Positions 2,377 to 60,714 are shown, counted from the stretch's first letter. The stretch is 64,000 nucleotides of DNA from a phage (GCA_036930585.1 GCA_036930585.1_3066.1); one strand, 5' to 3'. The notes: generated by a model not told the origin, from the letters alone. A program made the numbers and translations.

Positions 2377-4641
2377 TCATAATTTACACGCTGCACAATC
2401 GTCGGCTTTAGGAGTTTCTATTTCATAATCATCAGTACCAGAACCATCACGGGTATTATGATAATAGAAATTTTTAATGCCATAATACCATCCGTATAAC
2501 ATGTCATCAATCATTATTGACATTGGAACCTTTCCTTTTGGAAAAATCTGCGGGTCATAGTATGTATTCGCTGAAGCTGATTGACATACCCATTTCAGCA
2601 TAATAGCTACCTGCGTAAGATAAGGTTTATTACCTTTCTTAGCTAATTTCCACGTATAATCATAGAGGTCTATGTTATGCTCAATATTGGGCACGACTTG
2701 ATTAAAGGAACCCTCTTTTGATTCTTTAACAGAGACTGGTCCACGTGGAGGCTCGATACCGTTTGTACTGTTAGAAACTTGGGAAGATGACTCACATGGC
2801 ATAAGTGCTGATAATGTGCTATTACGGATGCCAAAGAGCTTAAGGTCTTCCCGCAGCGACGACCAGTCACAAACGTATTTTGGAGCTGCGATTTGGTCAA
2901 TCTTTTTATTGTACCAGTCGATAGGTAATTCGCCTCGAGACCAACGAGTGTCTGAATAATATTCGCAAGGTCCTTTTTCTTTGGCGAGCTTAATGGATGC
3001 TTTAATGAGCCCATACTGTAATCTCTCAAATAGTTCATGTGTTAAATCGTTAGCATCTTCGTAAGAAGCAAAGTTACTTGCCAGCCAAGCTGCATAGTTA
3101 GTAACACCTACACCGAGGTTTCGACGCTTTTTAGCTTTTAAAGCTTCTGGAACTGGATATCCTTGGTAATCCAACAGATTATCAAGAGCACGAACTTGAA
3201 CTTCTGCCAATTCATTAATTTTATCTTGGTCTTGCCAGTCAAAATTATCTAGTACGAATGCAGAGAGAGTACACAATCCAATTTCAGCATCAGGACTATT
3301 CACATCATTTGTTGGAATAGCAATTTCACAGCACAAGTTACTCTGGCGAATAGGTGCCTTTTCACGAATAAACGGAGTATAGTTATTCGTATTATCAATG
3401 AACTGCACATAAATCCTTGCCGTTCCTGAACGTTCAGTCATGAGCAATTCAAATAGTTCACGGGCTTTAATACGCTTTTTGCGAATATTAGGGTCTTTTT
3501 CTGCTGCTTCGTATAATTCACGGAAACGGTCTTGGTCTTTAAAATAAGAATAATAAAGCTCTCCACCCATTTCATGCGGACTGAACAAAGTAATGTAATC
3601 ATTCTTTCCGAATCGTTCCATCATTAGGTCATTCAGTTGAACGCCATAATCCATATGACGGATACGGTTTTCTTCTACGCCTTTGTTATTTTTCAAAACG
3701 AGAAGATTTTCAACTTCCAAATGCCAAATAGGATAATAAGCAGTAGCAGCGCCGCCACGAATTCCACCCTGTGAGCATGATTTAACAGCAGTCTGAAAAT
3801 GTTTCCAAAAAGGAATAACACCAGTATGGCGTACTTCACCTGTGCCAATCTTAGAACCTTCAGCACGAATCATACCAACGTTAATACCAATTCCAGCGCG
3901 TTTAGAGATATATTCAACAATTGAAGCAGAAGCCTTATTGATAGACTTCAGTGAATCGCCTGCCTCAATAACAACACATGAACTAAACTGCCGAGTTGGA
4001 GTACGGCAACCAGCCATAATAGGAGTTGGTAATGAAATCTGTCGAGTAGATACCGCTTCATAAAAACGGATAACATGTTTTAATCTATCAACAGGTTCAT
4101 CTTGATGCAATGCCATTCCAATAGTCATAAATGCAAACTGTGGAGTTTCATAAATTTGACCAGTGGTTTTATCTTTAACTAGATATTTTTCTTTTAATTG
4201 CATCGCCCCGGAATAAGTAAATTCCATATCCCGCTCGTGCTTAATTTTTGATTCTAAAAATGTAATTTCTTCTGCTGAATATTTTGACAATAATTCAGGG
4301 TCATATTTACCTTCATTTACACAGTAAGAAATATGGTCAATAAATGAACGTGGTTCATACTGCCCATAAACATGCTTACGAAGAGCAAACATTAAACAGC
4401 GTGCAGCTACATATTGATAATCAGGCTCTTCAACCGAAATAGAATTCGCAGCGGCCTTAATGACAATAGTCTGAATGTCATCAGTTGTCATTCCATCACG
4501 GAGATATGATTTAATATTTTCATATAATTCATAAGGATCTACTGATGTTCCCTCAGATGCCCAAGATAAAACTTTAATAATTTTTTGCGGGTCAAAGCTC
4601 TGAGAAACACCACTACTTTTGATAACATTAATTAATTGCAT
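2377..4641 (-). CDS. nrdA: Ribonucleotide reductase large subunit NrdA (754 aa)
   Basis: 754-aa ORF with class Ia R1 features (C-terminal CxxC, active-site region); length matches T4 NrdA. Confidence 0.95.
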   Translation of the reverse strand: MQLINVIKSSGVSQSFDPQKIIKVLSWASEGTSVDPYELYENIKSYLRDGMTTDDIQTIVIKAAANSISVEEPDYQYVAARCLMFALRKHVYGQYEPRSFIDHISYCVNEGKYDPELLSKYSAEEITFLESKIKHERDMEFTYSGAMQLKEKYLVKDKTTGQIYETPQFAFMTIGMALHQDEPVDRLKHVIRFYEAVSTRQISLPTPIMAGCRTPTRQFSSCVVIEAGDSLKSINKASASIVEYISKRAGIGINVGMIRAEGSKIGTGEVRHTGVIPFWKHFQTAVKSCSQGGIRGGAATAYYPIWHLEVENLLVLKNNKGVEENRIRHMDYGVQLNDLMMERFGKNDYITLFSPHEMGGELYYSYFKDQDRFRELYEAAEKDPNIRKKRIKARELFELLMTERSGTARIYVQFIDNTNNYTPFIREKAPIRQSNLCCEIAIPTNDVNSPDAEIGLCTLSAFVLDNFDWQDQDKINELAEVQVRALDNLLDYQGYPVPEALKAKKRRNLGVGVTNYAAWLASNFASYEDANDLTHELFERLQYGLIKASIKLAKEKGPCEYYSDTRWSRGELPIDWYNKKIDQIAAPKYVCDWSSLREDLKLFGIRNSTLSALMPCESSSQVSNSTNGIEPPRGPVSVKESKEGSFNQVVPNIEHNIDLYDYTWKLAKKGNKPYLTQVAIMLKWVCQSASANTYYDPQIFPKGKVPMSIMIDDMLYGWYYGIKNFYYHNTRDGSGTDDYEIETPKADDCAACKL

Positions 4642-4775
4642 AAGTCCTCAACTTGAAAATCGTCTTTAAACAATCGGTTAACTATATGAGCTATTATATC
4701 ACCATGACACGGCTTTGGTTTACATGTGCATCCTAGCCTCATTCCACGTAAAGGCTCTAAATGTGCTTTAGTTAT

Positions 4776-4958
4776 TTATCCGGATTTAATTCGACGTATA
4801 AAATCTTTTTTGAATAATTCAATGGCAGCCTCCCGGCTGCCAGCATCTTTACCGACGTAATTTCCCCAAAATGTACCACGGTGAATATTAACATCAAAGT
4901 CGGATTTATATTTATTCACTACCTGGCATAGACGGCCCGCGCGGTGATAATTCGTCAT
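4776..4958 (-). CDS. Hypothetical small protein (DUF4326-like core [12 protein letters not shown])
   Basis: 60-aa ORF overlapping the next ORF by 47 nt in another frame. Confidence 0.45.
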
Positions 4959-5175
4959 ATTGTTTTTCCGTTAAAACAGTAATATCATAGTAACAATCAG
5001 AAGAAGTTTTAACTGTAGAAATTTTATTATCAAAATACTCACGAGTCATTTTATGAGTATAATATTTTTTGCCATAAATGATAATAGGCTGATTTGGTCC
5101 TGGAACTTCTAACTCACTTGGGTTAGGAAGTGTAAAAAGAACTACACCAGAAGTATCTTTAAATCGTAAAATCAT
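4912..5175 (-). CDS. Hypothetical protein (87 aa)
   Basis: ORF between td and nrdA; no recognisable motif. Confidence 0.45.
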
Positions 5176-5198
5176 AAATCCTCACAATTAAATTAAAA

Positions 5199-5510
5199 TT
5201 ACACCGCCATTTTTCCTTTCAAGACGCCGTGGGACTGATAATCTTTGAGAACGAAATCTTTAGGCCTGAGTTTAAGAATGTATTCCAATTGTTCTTTAGT
5301 AGAAAGATAGCGGAATTTATAAGGCAATCCGCCTATTACCAGTTCACAAAGCTCTTTAGGTTCACGACGCAAAATTTCTTTACATTGTTCTACGTGATTC
5401 ATATAGATGTGAGTATTACCACCGGAAAATATCAAATCTCCCGGAATAAGATTACACATCTTAGCTACAATATGAACTAACGTAGCATATGATGCAATAT
5501 TAAATGGAAG
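5199..5510 (-). CDS. td: Thymidylate synthase, exon 2
   Basis: LPFNIASYATLVHIVAKMCNL...GGNTHIYMNHVEQ, C-terminal part of ThyA-type TS. Confidence 0.9.
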   Translation of the reverse strand, partial: LPFNIASYATLVHIVAKMCNLIPGDLIFSGGNTHIYMNHVEQCKEILRREPKELCELVIGGLPYKFRYLSTKEQLEYILKLRPKDFVLKDYQSHGVLKGKMAV

Positions 5511-51555: not shown

Positions 51556-51586
51556 TACTATACCATAGTCTTGTCAGCTTGTAAAC
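51556..51586 (-). promoter_or_regulatory. T4-type early promoter upstream of dmd
   Basis: Minus strand GTTTACAAGCTGACAAGACTATGGTATAGT. Confidence 0.5.
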
Positions 51587-53013
51587 TAAAATTTTAATTC
51601 ATTTGCCAAAGCATCTAACTGAGCTCGAGTGGATTCATTTCTTTGATAGCGATTCTGTTCAGCCTGAATCTGTTGTGAACCTGCTACTTCACTCACTTCG
51701 GTTGGAGTAGAATCTTGTTCAATTTCTACCCATTTTTGATTTCCTTTTTGAACACCCATCAAAAACTTATTCCACTTATTCTTATCACCATATCGTGATT
51801 TGATTTGCTTAATGAGTTGCTGTTCAGCAGCTGCTAGCTCCTCTGTTTCAATGACCGCAAGCATAAAATCAGCTGTCGCAGGAAGTCCGGCAGACTCTGC
51901 AATATCGCTCATGTTAACATCAGAAGAATCCCAAGCTTGTTTACCAACCTGTGCCGCAGTCCAAAGAACAGTTTCTGTTTCAACAGCCAAAGCACGCAAT
52001 TCCTCTGCAATAGCTTTAACAGTTGTGTAACTGTTTTCTGAATAAACTCTGATGCGACAAGATTTACAAATACCTAGATAGTCGACAATAATGATTGTTG
52101 GAACAAAATTCTTCTTGAGCTTCAATTCGTTTAAAAGTGATCGAAATGTATTAGCATCTGCTCCACCAGTAGGATACTGTTTAACGATTAAACGGCCGAG
52201 AGTAGATTTCTCACGCCATTTTTCCATTTTTCCTTTATATTCAGCGTAAGAAATATGCCCATCATCAATGTCATCAAGAGAAACATCAAGCATGTTAGCG
52301 TCAATACGCTTAGCACAGACTTCTTCTGCCATTTCCATGGAGATATAAAGAACGTTATGACCAAGCTGTAAATAATCCGCTGCTAATGAACAAAGTCCTA
52401 ATGATTTACCAACGTTAACACCAGCCATTAAAACGTTCAGTGTTCCAGTCTCAGCTCCGCCTTTAGTAATTTTGTTTAGAATTCTGAGTTTAAATGGAAC
52501 CTTACGAGCTTTATTCATATAAGATAGCCAACGTGCTTCGTAGTCATCCATCCAATCATGACCAACGTAGCTATCAAATGAAATTGATAATGCTTGACGC
52601 ATGATATCAGGAATAGCACCTACATCTGGCATTTTCTTATTTCGTTTTTCCGGAGGAAGCTCAGCATTGGTTTGAATTTCGATTATTTTAGACGTAGCAT
52701 TAAACATCGCCCTTTGCTGAACATATTTTTCTGTTTCTTTTATTAACCAGCTGTGGTCTTCCGGAGAATCAACTAGTTTTGAAATAAGTGTTTTTACACC
52801 AGAATATTCTGTTTCAGTAAATGAACTATTTTCTAATGCAACATTTAACGCATTAATAGATGGAACGCTATGGTACTCATTAACATGAGATTTAATTAAT
52901 TTGAATGTATTTTTAGCTGGACCACTTTCAAAATATTCTGAATCCATATATGGCCAAACTTTTGAAAAATAAGCTTGATCAAATATGAGATGAGAAAGAA
53001 TAATTTCTACCAC
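51586..53013 (-). CDS. 41: Replicative DNA helicase gp41
   Basis: 475-aa DnaB-family ORF (Walker A GVNVGKS). Confidence 0.95.
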   Translation of the reverse strand: MVEIILSHLIFDQAYFSKVWPYMDSEYFESGPAKNTFKLIKSHVNEYHSVPSINALNVALENSSFTETEYSGVKTLISKLVDSPEDHSWLIKETEKYVQQRAMFNATSKIIEIQTNAELPPEKRNKKMPDVGAIPDIMRQALSISFDSYVGHDWMDDYEARWLSYMNKARKVPFKLRILNKITKGGAETGTLNVLMAGVNVGKSLGLCSLAADYLQLGHNVLYISMEMAEEVCAKRIDANMLDVSLDDIDDGHISYAEYKGKMEKWREKSTLGRLIVKQYPTGGADANTFRSLLNELKLKKNFVPTIIIVDYLGICKSCRIRVYSENSYTTVKAIAEELRALAVETETVLWTAAQVGKQAWDSSDVNMSDIAESAGLPATADFMLAVIETEELAAAEQQLIKQIKSRYGDKNKWNKFLMGVQKGNQKWVEIEQDSTPTEVSEVAGSQQIQAEQNRYQRNESTRAQLDALANELKF

Positions 53014-53022
53014 ACTTACTCC

Positions 53023-53385
53023 TTAAAAGAATTTAAATTTTTTCTTTGACCTTTTATTAAATGCATCTTGCAGTTGCATTGTAATACATTTTTCTACATG
53101 AGGAGCTAACTCAGCTTTTCTTTCTTGGTCAAGAACAGCAAAGTCCATTACGACTTTTCCATCAACCCAATCTAATTTTGTCACATACACAATGTGTGTA
53201 GAACCATCTTCTAGTTTAATGACAATCTCCTGGATAACATTTTCCATAGCGGATTTAATTATCTTAAGAGATTCATTAAAAAGACGTTCTTTTCTTTCTT
53301 CTTCCCCCTCCGAAGAGGGGGATTCATCGATAATTTCTAGATCTAAGTCTAAATCATCTTTATTCATTAAATTCTTCCATATCAC
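53023..53385 (-). CDS. 40: gp40 (head assembly accessory protein)
   Basis: 120-aa ORF between uvsX and 41. Confidence 0.65.
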   Translation of the reverse strand: MIWKNLMNKDDLDLDLEIIDESPSSEGEEERKERLFNESLKIIKSAMENVIQEIVIKLEDGSTHIVYVTKLDWVDGKVVMDFAVLDQERKAELAPHVEKCITMQLQDAFNKRSKKKFKFF

Positions 53386-54535
53386 TTAACTGCTCGAGGT
53401 CAGTTTCTAAATCAGCAGCTGATTTACTTTTACTTTCTGGAGATTTAAATTTTTCAACCTTTGAGTTAATCAATTCATCAACTTCAGCTTCAACAATTTC
53501 ATTACTATCAATAGCACCTAACTGATAAGCACGTTTAATAGCATCTCGGAATGGTTGATGCTTAAATAAAGGACCCCAGAATGTAGTGCAGTTAGTATCT
53601 TTTGCACGCCAAGATTTTTCTTCGCGAATCATCTCGCCGGTTTCTTCGTCAAGAAATTCACGAGCATACCAACCATTCTTAGGTTTTACTACAAATCCTA
53701 ATTCTAGAGCCATATCTAACAATCCAGAATAAGGATCGATACCACCGTCAAATTTAACATCAATAAAGAATTTACTTTTTTCTTTAACGGTACGAGATTT
53801 TTCTACATTTAGAACAAATTGATACCCCTGAAGATCAGAACCATCTTTAATCTGACGTTTACCGATAATGAATACAGTATCAGCCGAATACATCGGTCCA
53901 GTACCACCTCCCATAACTGTTTTACTAAACATTTCTTGTGTTTCGTATGTATGGTTAATAGCAATACATGGAATATTTTTAGTACTAAAATAGGGAGTTA
54001 CGATACGAAATAAGCTTTTCATTGTTTTAGCTCTAGTCATATCACTAACAACTTTTTCATTTAAAGCATCTTCAGTTTCTTTCTTAGAAGCTAAGTTACC
54101 AAGTGAATCGATAAAAACGACTACCTTTTCGCCGCGTTCAATTGCATCCAATTGATTAACCATGTCAATACGTAATTGCTCAAGTGATTGAACCGGAGTA
54201 TGAATTACTCGTTCTGGATCGACTCCCATAGACCGCAAATAAGCAGGAGTAATACCAAATTCACTATCATAAAACAAACATACTGCATCAGGATATTGAC
54301 GCATGTAAGATGACACCATTGTTAATCCAAAGTTTGATTTAAATGATTTCGATGGACCTGCCAAAATTAACAGACCAGATTGCATACCACCAGTAATTTC
54401 ACCAGAAAGTGCAATATTCATCATAGGAATTTTTGTTCGAACTACATCTTTTTCATTAAAGAATTTAGATGCTGTTAATTCTGCAGTCAATTTAGAAGTA
54501 GAAGCTTTAATCAAACGAGATTTTAAATCAGACAT
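53360..54535 (-). CDS. uvsX: Recombinase UvsX (RecA/Rad51 family)
   Basis: 391-aa ORF MSDLKSRLIKASTSKLTAELTASKFFNEKD... with Walker A GPSKSFKS. Confidence 0.95.
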   Translation of the reverse strand: MSDLKSRLIKASTSKLTAELTASKFFNEKDVVRTKIPMMNIALSGEITGGMQSGLLILAGPSKSFKSNFGLTMVSSYMRQYPDAVCLFYDSEFGITPAYLRSMGVDPERVIHTPVQSLEQLRIDMVNQLDAIERGEKVVVFIDSLGNLASKKETEDALNEKVVSDMTRAKTMKSLFRIVTPYFSTKNIPCIAINHTYETQEMFSKTVMGGGTGPMYSADTVFIIGKRQIKDGSDLQGYQFVLNVEKSRTVKEKSKFFIDVKFDGGIDPYSGLLDMALELGFVVKPKNGWYAREFLDEETGEMIREEKSWRAKDTNCTTFWGPLFKHQPFRDAIKRAYQLGAIDSNEIVEAEVDELINSKVEKFKSPESKSKSAADLETDLEQLSDMEEFNE

Positions 54536-54543
54536 ATAATACC

Positions 54544-55209
54544 TTATAGTAGTGTTCTTGTTCCACGAAATACTTCGAGCATTCTTGCATAAGATTTATT
54601 TGGAAATCCAGCTTCAATTGCTAATTTTTTAAGCTTAATAGCACCGGGTTTTCCAGAGTTTTCCCATATTTCTTTAATCTTTTCAATGTTATCCCACATT
54701 ATTGGGTCACGTTTATGTGATGGTTTATTTCTATTATAACCATATGGATTATTAAGCAAAGCTTCTTTTCGTTTTGCTTTAGTTTCTTCTGACTGCTTTT
54801 TGCCTAGCTGGGCTTTCCGGCAAACATCACTAAATCCAAGATGTTTTGGTTTTCCTTTTTGAGCTTTTGAAATTTTTTCTTTGGTTTCTGATGAAACTCT
54901 ATAACCAATTCTTCTACCACCCTCTCCACCAATTTTTAAATTATAAGTCATAGGATCATTTACCACATCTATTGTTACTAATTCTCTTTCAGCATCACGG
55001 GCTGATTTAAAATCTTTATAAAACCCAAGAATGCTTAAATTAAAATTTTTCTTACCATACTTTTTCTTGGCTTGTGCTAATAAAGTTCCTGATCCCATAT
55101 AACCATCATTTAAATCATCGGTTGAATGAGTTCCATAGTAAATTTTATTATTAACTAAATTAGTTATAACATAAGTATAATTATATTTCTTTTCTTTATG
55201 TCTTTTCAT
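54544..55209 (-). CDS. segA: GIY-YIG homing endonuclease SegA-like
   Basis: Start at ATG 55209 (MKRHKEKKYNYTYVITNLVNNKIYYGTH...); GIY-YIG motif. Confidence 0.75.
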   Translation of the reverse strand: MKRHKEKKYNYTYVITNLVNNKIYYGTHSTDDLNDGYMGSGTLLAQAKKKYGKKNFNLSILGFYKDFKSARDAERELVTIDVVNDPMTYNLKIGGEGGRRIGYRVSSETKEKISKAQKGKPKHLGFSDVCRKAQLGKKQSEETKAKRKEALLNNPYGYNRNKPSHKRDPIMWDNIEKIKEIWENSGKPGAIKLKKLAIEAGFPNKSYARMLEVFRGTRTLL

Positions 55210-55213
55210 GTCA

Positions 55214-56062
55214 TTAATCAACTGCTATTGGATGAATAGCATTAAACTTATGAAATGCTTCTGATTTTTCTTTACGCGAAACACACATGCGAAGAACCTT
55301 TAATGGTTCGTCTTCTTCACCCAACGATTTTCGTTTTTCAATATTAGAAGTTTTCCAACGAGCTTGCTCTGGAAACTCTCTATTGATTTGCTCAAGCGCT
55401 CTATTATGTTTAGAATTACTACGAATTGAACTACACCCGCCAGGAGCTTGTGCTTTTCCAGATACAACCAGATATTTGAACAAGGCCAAATGCGGATAAC
55501 CTTGATTAATTAAATTGAGAAATGCATACATATCTTCGCACAAATCAATTTTTCCATACCCAATTTGTTCTGTCGTAAGTTTTCCGAGGTCATACCATGT
55601 ATTCGTGAATCCATATGAATTTTCACGATAATTACCCCAAGATGAAGTAATTTTAAAAATAGGTAGGCGAGCATGACCGTGATAATACCCGCAATCCATG
55701 GCATCTTCGACGTATTGAATCAATTCATAGAACTGTTCATGAGTCAATTGATTGACTTTATCTACACAGCGACGATCATCTTTCTTTCGCATTGAACTCA
55801 TACGAATAGTAGTATCATCGTCAATCATCCAGATTCGTTGACCTGCATACATATCAGTAATCGCTTTACGAGTACCAGCAATTCCATTAACATCATCAGG
55901 AATAGTTATAATTTTAGCTCTAGAGCCATAAGCGTCATAATAAGCTTTTTCTTCGTGTTCACGTACTACAATATGTGGTTCATAATCAGTCGGAAACATA
56001 TCAAGGGCAGAAACTGCCCCTACGCGTTGATAACTTGGAATTACGAATTGAATCATTTCCAT
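55214..56062 (-). CDS. Glycosyltransferase (GT-A fold, DxD motif) in the beta-gt position; probably T2/T6-type HMC-glucosyl transferase
   Basis: 282-aa ORF with IWMIDDDTTI; unlike the 351-aa T4 beta-gt. Confidence 0.55.
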   Translation of the reverse strand: MEMIQFVIPSYQRVGAVSALDMFPTDYEPHIVVREHEEKAYYDAYGSRAKIITIPDDVNGIAGTRKAITDMYAGQRIWMIDDDTTIRMSSMRKKDDRRCVDKVNQLTHEQFYELIQYVEDAMDCGYYHGHARLPIFKITSSWGNYRENSYGFTNTWYDLGKLTTEQIGYGKIDLCEDMYAFLNLINQGYPHLALFKYLVVSGKAQAPGGCSSIRSNSKHNRALEQINREFPEQARWKTSNIEKRKSLGEEDEPLKVLRMCVSRKEKSEAFHKFNAIHPIAVD

Positions 56063-56793
56063 TCACCGTTATAATCTTTTTTCGCAATATGAGTTTCACC
56101 AGTGTTCCACCAATGGTCAACTAAATAAAACTGATTTTCGTACACATGAAGACTTCCAACGTTCCATATAATAGAACCTGCTTTATATTGCCGCGATGGG
56201 TCGCCTGCATTCAAATCAGATACTAATTTATCTAGTACGTATTTTTGCCAAGCATAATCATTACGATAGCCTGCCCAGCAATCATTGCTTCTCATGCTAA
56301 CAACCGCATTGACTTTCTTATCACGAATCAGGTACTGTACTGTATTAGTACACATGAAATCTGACATACCATCTTTATTGTAGTCAAATTGCATGGATGG
56401 ACGAGTATAAATCATGATACCACGTCGAGAATCAGGATTTTGACCAAGTTCAGCTAAACACATATCATACTGGGCATAGTTATCTTCTGACCAAATAGCC
56501 CAACCATAATTCGAGTTAATTTCGCCTTTAGAAGATGCTACCTGCTGCCAAATCTTTGGTGTTTCACCTGGAATATCTTTAACAAACAAACTCTTAGATT
56601 TATACCATTCAAGTTCACGCTGAATGTATTCATCATTAAGAGCGCCAAAAATAAACGGTTCATCTGCTATAAATGATGCGCCAATAATTTCAATAGTTTT
56701 AACGCCAGTTTTATCAACTACGAAATCTTTTTCCTTTAATGCAAGCCCCAAATGAAGACGGATTTCTTCAACTGTCATAGAGTCACTAATCAT
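56053..56793 (-). CDS. 42: dCMP hydroxymethylase gp42
   Basis: 246-aa thymidylate-synthase-fold ORF MISDSMTVEEIRLHLGLALKEKDF... Confidence 0.95.
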   Translation of the reverse strand: MISDSMTVEEIRLHLGLALKEKDFVVDKTGVKTIEIIGASFIADEPFIFGALNDEYIQRELEWYKSKSLFVKDIPGETPKIWQQVASSKGEINSNYGWAIWSEDNYAQYDMCLAELGQNPDSRRGIMIYTRPSMQFDYNKDGMSDFMCTNTVQYLIRDKKVNAVVSMRSNDCWAGYRNDYAWQKYVLDKLVSDLNAGDPSRQYKAGSIIWNVGSLHVYENQFYLVDHWWNTGETHIAKKDYNGEWK

Positions 56794-56800
56794 TTAAACC

Positions 56801-56950
56801 TCAATTGATACATTCATATTTAACTTGTAACAGTAATAAACCCCACCCTATGATAAAAGTTGGAATCATAAGAGGAACCGTTACACTATAGTATATACTT
56901 ATTATAATCATCAAGATTAAAAGCAACACTGTTATAATTTTGCTTTTCAT
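56801..56950 (-). CDS. Small membrane protein (49 aa)
   Basis: MKSKIITVLLLILMIIISIYYSV...; ATGA-coupled to imm; not in track. Confidence 0.35.
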   Translation of the reverse strand: MKSKIITVLLLILMIIISIYYSVTVPLMIPTFIIGWGLLLLQVKYECIN

Positions 56951-57596: not shown

Positions 57597-57845
57597 TCAA
57601 ATGCAAGTAGTAATTACTCCAGTAGTGCTTATGCAGGTATTACCCATTTGCACACCTAAAGATCCATTTGTATTCACATGAAGATTATCATCAATTTTAA
57701 CTGATATTTTACCATTAGTGTGAATAACGGTGCTAGATTCAATCACAGGTTGAGTATCATTTTCAACACTAACAAATGGAACTGCTGCTAATGCAACTAA
57801 ACAAACTGCTAAGCATCCCATAACAATTTTCATTTCATTCTCCAA
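57597..57845 (-). CDS. Small secreted/membrane protein (82 aa)
   Basis: N-terminal signal-like hydrophobic segment. Confidence 0.45.
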   Translation of the reverse strand: MENEMKIVMGCLAVCLVALAAVPFVSVENDTQPVIESSTVIHTNGKISVKIDDNLHVNTNGSLGVQMGNTCISTTGVITTCI

Positions 57846-58017: not shown

Positions 58018-60714
58018 TCAGCCAAACAGGAAGTCTAACGAAGCTTTTTCTTCATAGTCCATACCTGCCGATTCACACATACCCGCAAGCGGTTTAACAA
58101 ACGATTTTTGGAACAAAGTTGAGTGGTCAATCCAAGATAGCACATCAGAACGAATTTCTTTTGGAAGTTCTGTACCCGATGGCCAAGCAATGCACTTGTC
58201 ACCAAATGGATTTCCTTCACGTAATGGAAGAACCATTACTTTATTTCCATCCAAAATTGGAGCTACACCCAGACCACTAACAGCTCGACGATAAGTTAGC
58301 ACACCGCGAATATGGAACGGGCATTTAAATCCTGGCCAACCTTTATCATCATATTTCGCTATATCGTTCGCAGTTTTTACTTCAGCAATAACTTTATAGT
58401 CAAGTTGACGATATTCTTTCTCGAAGTTCTTGTAGTATTCTTGGACAGACTCTTCACCTTCTTGAAGAATACGACGAATACTTTCTTCGAGAGCTTCTTG
58501 CACTGCTTTTGGTGTTGAACTCTGCTGAGTTTCCATACCCATGATTTTTAGATGCGGTTCAGCAAATCGTTTATCTTCCATATCATAAACGTTCAGAGCA
58601 TAACGCTTTTTCGCTTTCCAAAATCCACCAACACCCTTTGAACCAAGTGGAGGGCAAGAAATAGCTTCACGGTCCATATGCATCAGATGCTCGCGGTTAT
58701 TCATATAATCACATAACTCACGATATGCAGCATCAATCATAGGTTCCATCTTTTTCTTACCGAACTGATTCATGAATTCAACTAAATCGTTCTGCTCTTT
58801 GAATCGGTCAAGACCAACTTTTTCAATAACTTTATCTACACAAACATATACCGAATCAGTATCACCTGCTGCGATGAAATCTTCACCATTAGTTCCGCAT
58901 ACTTTATTCAGATATTCATTAATTTTACGAGCAATCCACTGAATACCAACTTGGCCGAAAATTGTGATAGCAGTAGCATTTCGCAAATCATAGTAACGGA
59001 AATGAATATTACCAAGAGCACCGTAAAGACTGTTAATAAGAATTTTACGGTTCAGCTGATTTGTGTTAGCAAGTGTAGCTGCTTTTTCACATTCTTCAAT
59101 CAAACTATTGAGAACAGATTCGGTGTAATTCGATAGTTCATTTAAGAAATCATCACTGAACTTAACATATCGTTCAACTTCAGGTTTAGTTGAACAAGAC
59201 CCTGCGCCTTTCATAATAATCTTTTTGATAGCTTCGGCATTCATTTCTTCAGCGAACATTTTCTTTTTCCAGTCTTTACGCTGGAAAAATACTTTAGCGA
59301 TTTCCTTTGGAATGATACCTTCTTGATGCTTATCATACATCCATCCATTCGGAGAACAAGAATATTCATCACTTGGTTTAGGAGCTGTTCCTGCGATATA
59401 TTCATGAATTGGATGAACTTTAAACTGACCACGAATAGTCTCAGGACTAATGTTAACCTGACGAATAATGCTCGGATACAGAGACGTCAAGTCAAAACTC
59501 ATAATATATCGACGAGCAATTGGTTTAGGTTCAAATACGAATGCACCCGGAAAACTCTGTTTAACGTGCGAACCTTGTTGAGGAATAACCTTATGTTCAC
59601 CTTTCAATGAGTTAAAAATAATAGCATCCCAAGTTTTAATAGGACTCATTACACCAGAAAAAGGCATTTTAGCGTAATAAGACATACTTAAAACTAGATC
59701 GATAAACCCGCGAATTTTATCAATTGCTTGAACTGATTCTACGTCAATGATGTTATAACTAATGTATCGTTGATGATTAGTCTCACGAAGTTTATTAATA
59801 GGACCGTCGTATGGTAATTTACCTTTTTTGGTTTCATGTTGAGCAACTGATTCCAAAGAGAATGACGGCAAATTAGTAAAAGCGAATTTCTTGTACAAAT
59901 CTAAATAATCAAGAATAGATACGCCATCAATAGAATAAATTTCTTTGCTACCGTACACATTTTGAATTAGTTTAGATTTTACCCGACCGATTGGAGAGAA
60001 ACGTTTCATACTACGTTCACCGAGAACCATTTTAACACGATTCATGATATACGGAACGTCAAATCCCTCAATATTCCAACCAGTAAAAATAGCAGGTCGT
60101 TTCTGTTCCCAAAGATTAATATATTCCATGAGCATATCACGCTCATTATCGAATGGCATATAAATTACTCGGTCAAGAATTTCTTGAGGAACTTCATCAC
60201 CACCTTCACAGTCAAGCTTAGCAGCTAACTTTGCATCCCATTTTGATACTGAACCGTACATTGAATTCAAAAGGTCGAAAACATAAAAACGATCATCAAT
60301 TGAATCATAATGAGTAATAGCATCAATTTCATATTCTGCTTTCATTGGGTCAGGAAATTTATCACCAGTAACCTCAATGTCACAGTTAGCTACACGAACA
60401 AATTTTCGGTCATAAACAATTTCTGAACCGTATGTATCACTGATATAAGCGAGTTTAAAATCGTTCATACCAAGAGCTTCGAGACCGATGTCTTCCATTC
60501 GCTTCATCCAATCTTGAGCATCTTTCATTGATGGAAATTTTTGAGGAGCACAGTTTTTACCATAGATGTCTTTGTACTTTGACTCTTCCTTACAATGCCT
60601 AAACATAGTCGGAAGATATTCTACTTCACGAGTACGTTCCTTTCCGTTTTCATCAATATAACGTTCAACAATGTTATTTCCGACTGTTTCGATAGAGATA
60701 TAAAATTCTTTCAT
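58018..60714 (-). CDS. 43: DNA polymerase gp43 (family B)
   Basis: 898-aa ORF with exo and pol motifs (DIE, SLYPS, DTDS). Confidence 0.97.
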   Translation of the reverse strand: MKEFYISIETVGNNIVERYIDENGKERTREVEYLPTMFRHCKEESKYKDIYGKNCAPQKFPSMKDAQDWMKRMEDIGLEALGMNDFKLAYISDTYGSEIVYDRKFVRVANCDIEVTGDKFPDPMKAEYEIDAITHYDSIDDRFYVFDLLNSMYGSVSKWDAKLAAKLDCEGGDEVPQEILDRVIYMPFDNERDMLMEYINLWEQKRPAIFTGWNIEGFDVPYIMNRVKMVLGERSMKRFSPIGRVKSKLIQNVYGSKEIYSIDGVSILDYLDLYKKFAFTNLPSFSLESVAQHETKKGKLPYDGPINKLRETNHQRYISYNIIDVESVQAIDKIRGFIDLVLSMSYYAKMPFSGVMSPIKTWDAIIFNSLKGEHKVIPQQGSHVKQSFPGAFVFEPKPIARRYIMSFDLTSLYPSIIRQVNISPETIRGQFKVHPIHEYIAGTAPKPSDEYSCSPNGWMYDKHQEGIIPKEIAKVFFQRKDWKKKMFAEEMNAEAIKKIIMKGAGSCSTKPEVERYVKFSDDFLNELSNYTESVLNSLIEECEKAATLANTNQLNRKILINSLYGALGNIHFRYYDLRNATAITIFGQVGIQWIARKINEYLNKVCGTNGEDFIAAGDTDSVYVCVDKVIEKVGLDRFKEQNDLVEFMNQFGKKKMEPMIDAAYRELCDYMNNREHLMHMDREAISCPPLGSKGVGGFWKAKKRYALNVYDMEDKRFAEPHLKIMGMETQQSSTPKAVQEALEESIRRILQEGEESVQEYYKNFEKEYRQLDYKVIAEVKTANDIAKYDDKGWPGFKCPFHIRGVLTYRRAVSGLGVAPILDGNKVMVLPLREGNPFGDKCIAWPSGTELPKEIRSDVLSWIDHSTLFQKSFVKPLAGMCESAGMDYEEKASLDFLFG

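Follow-up and report, generated by a model that had tools for sequence, protein, structure and literature searches.

The window, the whole 64,000-nucleotide (64-kb) stretch of DNA analysed here, comes from a Tequatrovirus (T4-like) phage. No identical record was found when it was compared with phage records, the best match being 215Ecol030PP at 97% identity over 24 kb. The ORF list and Pfam matches give a minus-strand gene order of 41-40-uvsX-segA-[transferase]-42-imm-43, which is the order of T4 and is also syntenic with T6 and T2. The features of the locus, with their coordinates, strand and the basis for each, are as follows:

51586-53013, minus strand: gene 41 helicase (ORF list, Pfam).
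Between gene 41 and uvsX, minus strand: gene 40 (ORF list).
53360-54535, minus strand: uvsX, a RecA-like recombinase of 391 aa, a T4-type length (Pfam T4_UVSX_C and RecA, T4 annotation).
53894-54535, no strand: the segA-linked uvsX 5' allele (fixed differences and census).
54544-55209, minus strand: segA, 221 aa, known from T4 as a free-standing homing endonuclease of the GIY-YIG type (SegA identity, Pfam, translation).
55210-55236, no strand: junction, comprising a 4-nt spacer and the 23-nt end of the transferase gene, 20 coding nt plus the stop codon (alignment with T4).
55214-56056, minus strand: coding sequence of the transferase, ggt/TAGT, 280 aa from the ATG at 56056, with the frame open to an ATG at 56062 (282 aa).
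55805-55834, minus strand: motif IWMIDDDTTI, with aspartates D81-D83 (282-aa frame) at 55814-55822 (translation).
56053-56793, minus strand: gene 42, dCMP hydroxymethylase (Pfam Thymidylat_synt; synteny with T4, T6 and T2).
Between genes 42 and 43, minus strand: small membrane ORFs of the imm type (ORF list).
58018-60714, minus strand: gene 43 DNA polymerase (ORF list, Pfam).

Two small hydrophobic ORFs on the minus strand, of 49 aa (56801-56950) and 82 aa (57597-57845), flank imm/imm.1 between genes 42 and 43; similar small hypothetical proteins are annotated between these genes in AR1, JK23 and T2, and the reference T4 record annotates none there. A scan for sigma-70 promoters and terminators returned 16 promoter-like sites around the locus against 16.5 expected by chance, and a pattern search for the T4 late promoter TATAAATA found none on the coding strand of 53300-56900.

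In the ORF list the transferase is a 282-aa frame with an ATG start (55214-56062, minus strand), which overlaps by 8 nt a 225-aa ORF with a TTG start (54544-55221, minus strand); the PHROG and Pfam matches and the 690 phage records recovered by tblastn identify these as real genes and not chance ORFs. For the transferase, the second ATG, at 56056, is the most likely start and gives a protein of 280 aa, because this ATG forms an ATGA overlap with the TGA stop of gene 42 and because most homologues begin MIQF. The protein is the beta-glucosyl-HMC-alpha-glucosyltransferase (ggt or TAGT, PF20691) of T2/T6-type Tequatrovirus phages. The 282-aa translation matched phrog_842, which carries this same name, with an E-value of 1.7e-89, and Pfam PF20691 (TET-associated glycosyltransferase, TAGT) with an E-value of 6.8e-10 and 39.6 bits (curated cut-off 27.5), whilst tblastn recovered it in 690 phage records, 686 with full-length matches and 472 at 95% identity or above. 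Identities in these searches were 98.2% to T6, 99.3% to AR1 and 98.6% to vB_Eco_CP; over the 280-aa frame the protein is 100% identical to AR1 and 99% identical to T2 and Manna. Relatedness at this level is consistent with the T2/T6-like modification pattern that the initial annotation, made from the sequence alone, had suggested. That annotation had also described the ORF as unlike the T4 beta-glucosyltransferase, and so it proved: BLASTP against T4 beta-gt gave no similarity (best E-value 0.28, over 10 residues only), which excludes a T4 beta-gt homologue as the identity of the 282-aa ORF. With T4 alpha-gt and beta-gt as queries, tblastn found neither gene anywhere in the 64-kb window (E > 1).

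The DxD motif that had been read in this ORF (IWMIDDDTTI) is present, and its three aspartates, D81-D83, do not vary in any of 11 homologues, which reach down to 37% identity. Comparison with these homologues shows that all invariant family residues are kept in the transferase of the window. A sequence search for a solved structure of a relative returned none at E-values up to 1, the protein was therefore modelled and its fold compared. The AF2 model (pLDDT 82, pTM 0.84) places D81-D83 in a loop straight after strand 76-80, the position of the DxD motif in GT-A enzymes, so that the model predicts a GT-A fold carrying an acidic motif of the DxD type, in line with the fold class first proposed for this ORF. 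The T6 enzyme has likewise been placed in PF20691 and described as GT-A in fold and sister to GT2 (bioRxiv 10.64898/2025.12.06.692756).

In the T6 record MH550421, an in-frame stop (4034-4036) occupies ggt codon 10 of the 280-aa frame (Y-stop-R vs. Y-Q-R), as a result of which the coding sequence is annotated as an N-terminally shortened protein of 261 aa; the stop could have arisen by mutation in the stock or reflect an error of sequencing. Broken copies of ggt therefore exist in laboratory stocks or records, and the gene in the window might in the same way be present yet inactive and decaying. We consider this exceedingly improbable, as the frame is intact from its ATGA-coupled start to its stop, none of the invariant residues has been lost and the full 280-aa identity to AR1 is hard to reconcile with decay.

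The slot between gene 42 and uvsX is arranged in the window and in related phages as follows:

T4: 42-beta-gt-segA-uvsX.
This window: 42-ggt-segA-uvsX.
T6, T2 and AR1: 42-ggt-uvsX, with no segA and a 77-nt spacer.
JK23: 42-[642-bp ORF; JK23 annotation: site-specific intron-like endonuclease]-ggt-uvsX.
Manna and 215Ecol030PP: the extra 642-bp ORF of the JK23 type, together with segA.

The transferase accordingly occupies the place of beta-gt in T4, between uvsX/segA and gene 42, as the initial annotation had stated, and TAGT has been reported as syntenic with T4 beta-gt (PMC13390438). Both enzymes glucosylate modified cytosine in DNA, yet they share no sequence similarity and differ in fold (GT-B for the 351-aa T4 beta-gt, GT-A for ggt), and whereas beta-gt is a primary transferase acting on hmC, ggt is a secondary one acting on glucosyl-hmC (bioRxiv 10.64898/2025.12.06.692756). 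From the T2 and T6 ggt there is no substantive difference: the proteins are 98-99% identical and agree in length (280 aa), in position between 42 and uvsX, in ATGA coupling and in a GT-A fold with the DDD motif, although T2 and T6 lack the segA which follows ggt in the window. The mobile-looking 642-bp ORF lies between ggt and gene 42 at 4342-4983 in JK23 and at 4654-5295 in Manna; in the window this position is empty (56053-56056), the two genes overlapping as ATGA.

Phages of other T4-like genera, including CC31, PG7, Moon, Merlin and Klebsiella and Enterobacter phages, encode a TAGT homologue of 62-67% identity adjoining gene 42. In these genera (e.g. CC31, GU323318 22120-24026) a beta-gt homologue with ~49% identity to the T4 protein stands between TAGT and uvsX, both genes thus sharing the slot, and the acceptor of TAGT there is likely to be beta-glucosyl-hmC. 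The Escherichia Tequatrovirus phages G3F6 and G2540 similarly combine ggt with a beta-gt homologue, 55% identical to that of T4. Genes for DNA glycosyltransferases have a general hot-spot in this interval between gene 42 and uvsX.

As to enzymatic activity and the final DNA modification, we infer a pathway of the T2/T6 type. Gene 42, whose presence shows a capacity for hmC synthesis, would make hydroxymethyl-dCMP, leading to hmC in the phage DNA, and a first glucose would be added by an alpha-glucosyltransferase expected a few kb past the end of the window. The T4 a-gt gene lies at 36.6-37.8 kb, which by synteny corresponds to a few kb beyond the window's end, and in the closest relative, 215Ecol030PP, alpha-gt is found ~13 kb further on, at the expected place; the window itself does not contain this gene, and the acceptor of the second glucose is therefore deduced from relatives. 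The GT-A, DxD-type and probably inverting enzyme encoded by ggt would then add a second glucose from UDP-glucose in beta-1,6 linkage, the putative product being gentiobiosyl-hmC, as in T2 and T6. UDP-glucose is an alpha-linked donor, and GT2-like enzymes are generally inverting. An inverting enzyme using such a donor would leave a beta linkage, consistent with gentiobiose, which is a beta-1,6 disaccharide (PMC13390438).

The secondary glucosyltransferase of T2 and T6 makes gentiobiosyl-hmC (bioRxiv 10.64898/2025.12.06.692756), and both alpha-glucosyl- and gentiobiosyl-mdC have been found by HPLC/MS in Tequatrovirus isolates carrying alpha-GT and TAGT (PMC13390438); one of these isolates, CP, appears to be that of the vB_Eco_CP record, matched by name only. 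The TAGT family is diverse, its homologues also occurring alongside a beta-GT or, in some cases, with no recognisable primary glucosyltransferase, which bears on the acceptor specificity of the family (bioRxiv 10.64898/2025.12.06.692756). Taken with the lack of a visible alpha-gt in the window, this diversity would allow the 280-aa enzyme to be something other than a second-glucose transferase, either a primary transferase acting directly on hmC or one that adds another sugar such as arabinose. Such an activity is very improbable for an enzyme 98-100% identical to those of T6, T2 and AR1, given the sugars measured in isolates with the alpha-GT and TAGT pair and the presence of alpha-gt where it is expected in the closest relative. 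A second-glucose transferase is therefore the reading we retain. The extent of the modification is unpredictable from sequence, because gentiobiosyl-mdC reportedly amounts to ~5% in T2 vs. 72% in T6 (PMC13390438) even though the two enzymes are near-identical.

The type of sugar on hmC sets which host defences hit a T-even phage, among them McrBC, GmrSD/BrxU-type enzymes and the Brig1 glycosylase, and the presence of a T6-type ggt in place of beta-gt therefore helps to predict host range and resistance profile. A second glucose would alter the set of host nucleases and glycosylases able to act on the DNA: T6 DNA, with gentiobiosyl-hmC, is not degraded by Brig1 (PMC11078745), and gentiobiosyl-hmC DNA is still targeted by GmrSD-type enzymes (bioRxiv 10.64898/2025.12.06.692756). 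This link between ggt and defence is already established for T2/T6-type phages, of which the window is one more example.

On the other side of the transferase lies the endonuclease, for which the ATG at 55209 is most likely the start; the resulting 221 aa agree with the T4 annotation of SegA, and with this start segA begins 4 nt after the transferase stop and the two genes do not overlap. The initial annotation was right that a GIY-YIG ORF adjoins the transferase, but in calling it SegA-like it understated the case: the protein is identical to T4 SegA at 220 of 221 residues, its DNA is 99.9-100% identical to that of T4 records, and it carries the Pfam domains GIY-YIG (PF01541, E-value 3.4e-9) and NUMOD3 (PF07460, E-value 1.3e-6). 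It is T4 SegA itself. As in T4, the gene is free-standing and lies 8 nt ahead of the uvsX start, and the two phages share the site immediately upstream of uvsX and the same linked uvsX 5' allele, differing in the upstream neighbour, which is beta-gt in T4 and ggt in the window. SegA is described in a review as an active free-standing GIY-YIG endonuclease between uvsX and beta-gt whose target is uvsX (PMC2988022); in the summary given there, site-specific cleavage of uvsX by T4 SegA is credited to Sharma and Hinton 1994. The gene is present in 27 phage records, 18 of them T4-type (beta-gt) and nine with ggt; related records overwhelmingly lack it. Only nine of ~500 related phage records combine segA with ggt, a pairing that is annotated in public genomes.

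The T4 genome retains a trace of ggt at this position. Directly upstream of its segA start, T4 has the sequence GTCATTAATCAACTGCTATTcGATGAA (NC_000866 record, 5237-5263), which aligns with positions 55210-55236 of the window at 26 of 27 nt and consists of the 4-nt spacer followed by 23 nt of the ggt 3' end, namely its final 20 coding nt and the stop codon. Beyond this relic T4 diverges, and ~137 nt unrelated to the window lie between it and beta-gt; at the other end, the match with the window is picked up again in the closing few codons of gene 42. The ggt of T6, which has no segA, ends with the same 23 nt, so the stretch is native to ggt and not a part of the segA cassette. On the simplest reading of these alignments, a beta-gt segment would have replaced nearly the whole of ggt in a T4 ancestor arranged ggt-segA-uvsX. 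Because T4 keeps this 3' relic upstream of segA, the arrangement in the window is probably older than that of T4.

To locate sequence associated with segA, we aligned 2.9 kb of the 41-40-uvsX region from four genomes with segA and three without, and counted the fixed differences between the groups. The 650 nt at 53894-54543 held 136 fixed differences (21 per 100 nt), with just two variable columns among segA carriers and 22 among the segA-less genomes, whilst the 2194 nt at 51700-53893 held a single fixed difference, with 102 and 105 variable columns, respectively. The inner boundary of the divergent allele is sharp, at 53894. Over the 642 nt of the uvsX 5' part (53894-54535) the allele differs by ~21% from the one in segA-less relatives and hardly varies among segA carriers, and in the protein, residues 1-214 of UvsX from the window are 83.6% identical to T6, the rest being 100% identical. 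In a census of the whole phage collection, 29 records carried the allele at 95% identity or above and all 1232 others were at 79% or below, with no donor lineage above 79% identity in the collection. Every segA-positive record has the divergent allele. The exception to the reverse is Salmonella phage SG1 (MF001354, ~1540-1720), which has a T4-type uvsX allele but no segA, switching ~20 nt from the uvsX start to a T6-type start-codon region and 77-nt spacer; SG1 is a recombinant which breaks the otherwise strict link between segA and the allele, and the linkage is not absolute.

The initial annotation had cast the endonuclease as a likely vehicle for exchange of the transferase, and this part of it was not borne out, since segA is tied to the uvsX 5' allele and no segA-linked haplotype exists in the transferase gene. 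Double-strand breaks made by SegA could in principle drive replacement of neighbouring transferase genes: segA directly adjoins the transferase, Tequatrovirus phages differ in the transferases that they carry at this locus, and in T4 the switch point between beta-gt and ggt is only 27 nt from the segA start. The association runs in the opposite direction, however. All 136 of the segA-associated fixed differences of the 650-nt block lie on the uvsX side, where the published cleavage target is also found (PMC2988022), whereas the 843-nt transferase gene, aligned from eight genomes, shows ordinary mosaic polymorphism with no segA-associated site, the single fixed difference falling in the 4-nt spacer outside the gene. 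A near-identical segA cassette is moreover found beside either transferase, in the 18 beta-gt and nine ggt records, and the transferase diversity of the slot extends to phages that lack segA (G3F6, CC31-like genera). We thus regard replacement of transferases by SegA as unlikely.

By these haplotypes segA travels with the 5' part of uvsX and not with the transferase. An endonuclease gene that carries along the adjoining portion of its target is what is expected of a homing element with one-sided co-conversion, and both parts of the homing signature are present, that is, presence/absence polymorphism among relatives and linked flanking divergence at the target gene, uvsX. From this linkage pattern we infer active homing of SegA in natural populations. 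SegA would act as a separate selfish element, cutting the uvsX of segA-less relatives in mixed infections, upon which repair of the break would copy in segA along with ~640 nt of the donor uvsX 5' end, and its spread would be independent of which transferase sits on the other side. The segment at 53894-54535 looks like such a co-conversion tract moving with segA, and the near-invariance of the cassette among carriers points to a homing sweep in recent times, whose donor lineage would lie outside the databases.

We hold it highly probable that the locus combines two separate entities, a ggt/TAGT of the T2/T6 type, which would add the second glucose to give gentiobiosyl-hmC, and T4 SegA as a selfish element targeting uvsX. 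With less confidence, though still as the favoured history, we take the window to preserve the arrangement ancestral to the T4 locus, combined with a recent spread of segA as a ~1.3 kb cassette carrying the divergent uvsX 5' segment. The identity of the transferase, its GT-A fold, its synteny with beta-gt, gentiobiosyl-hmC and SegA are already described in the literature; in the literature examined we found no explicit statement of the replacement of ggt by beta-gt in T4, and the T4 ggt relic, like the segA-uvsX cassette and its sharp edge, is a minor detail that is possibly unreported, of relevance mainly to T4 genome evolution and homing endonuclease research.

Finally, a pattern search located a MotA-box-like middle-promoter consensus (TTTGCTTAA, 12 nt, TATAAT) at 54733-54760 on the minus strand, inside segA and ~200 nt upstream of uvsX. 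The site is a consensus match only and hence a putative promoter, and it would agree with a published proposal in which promoters lying within seg genes help these genes to be retained.
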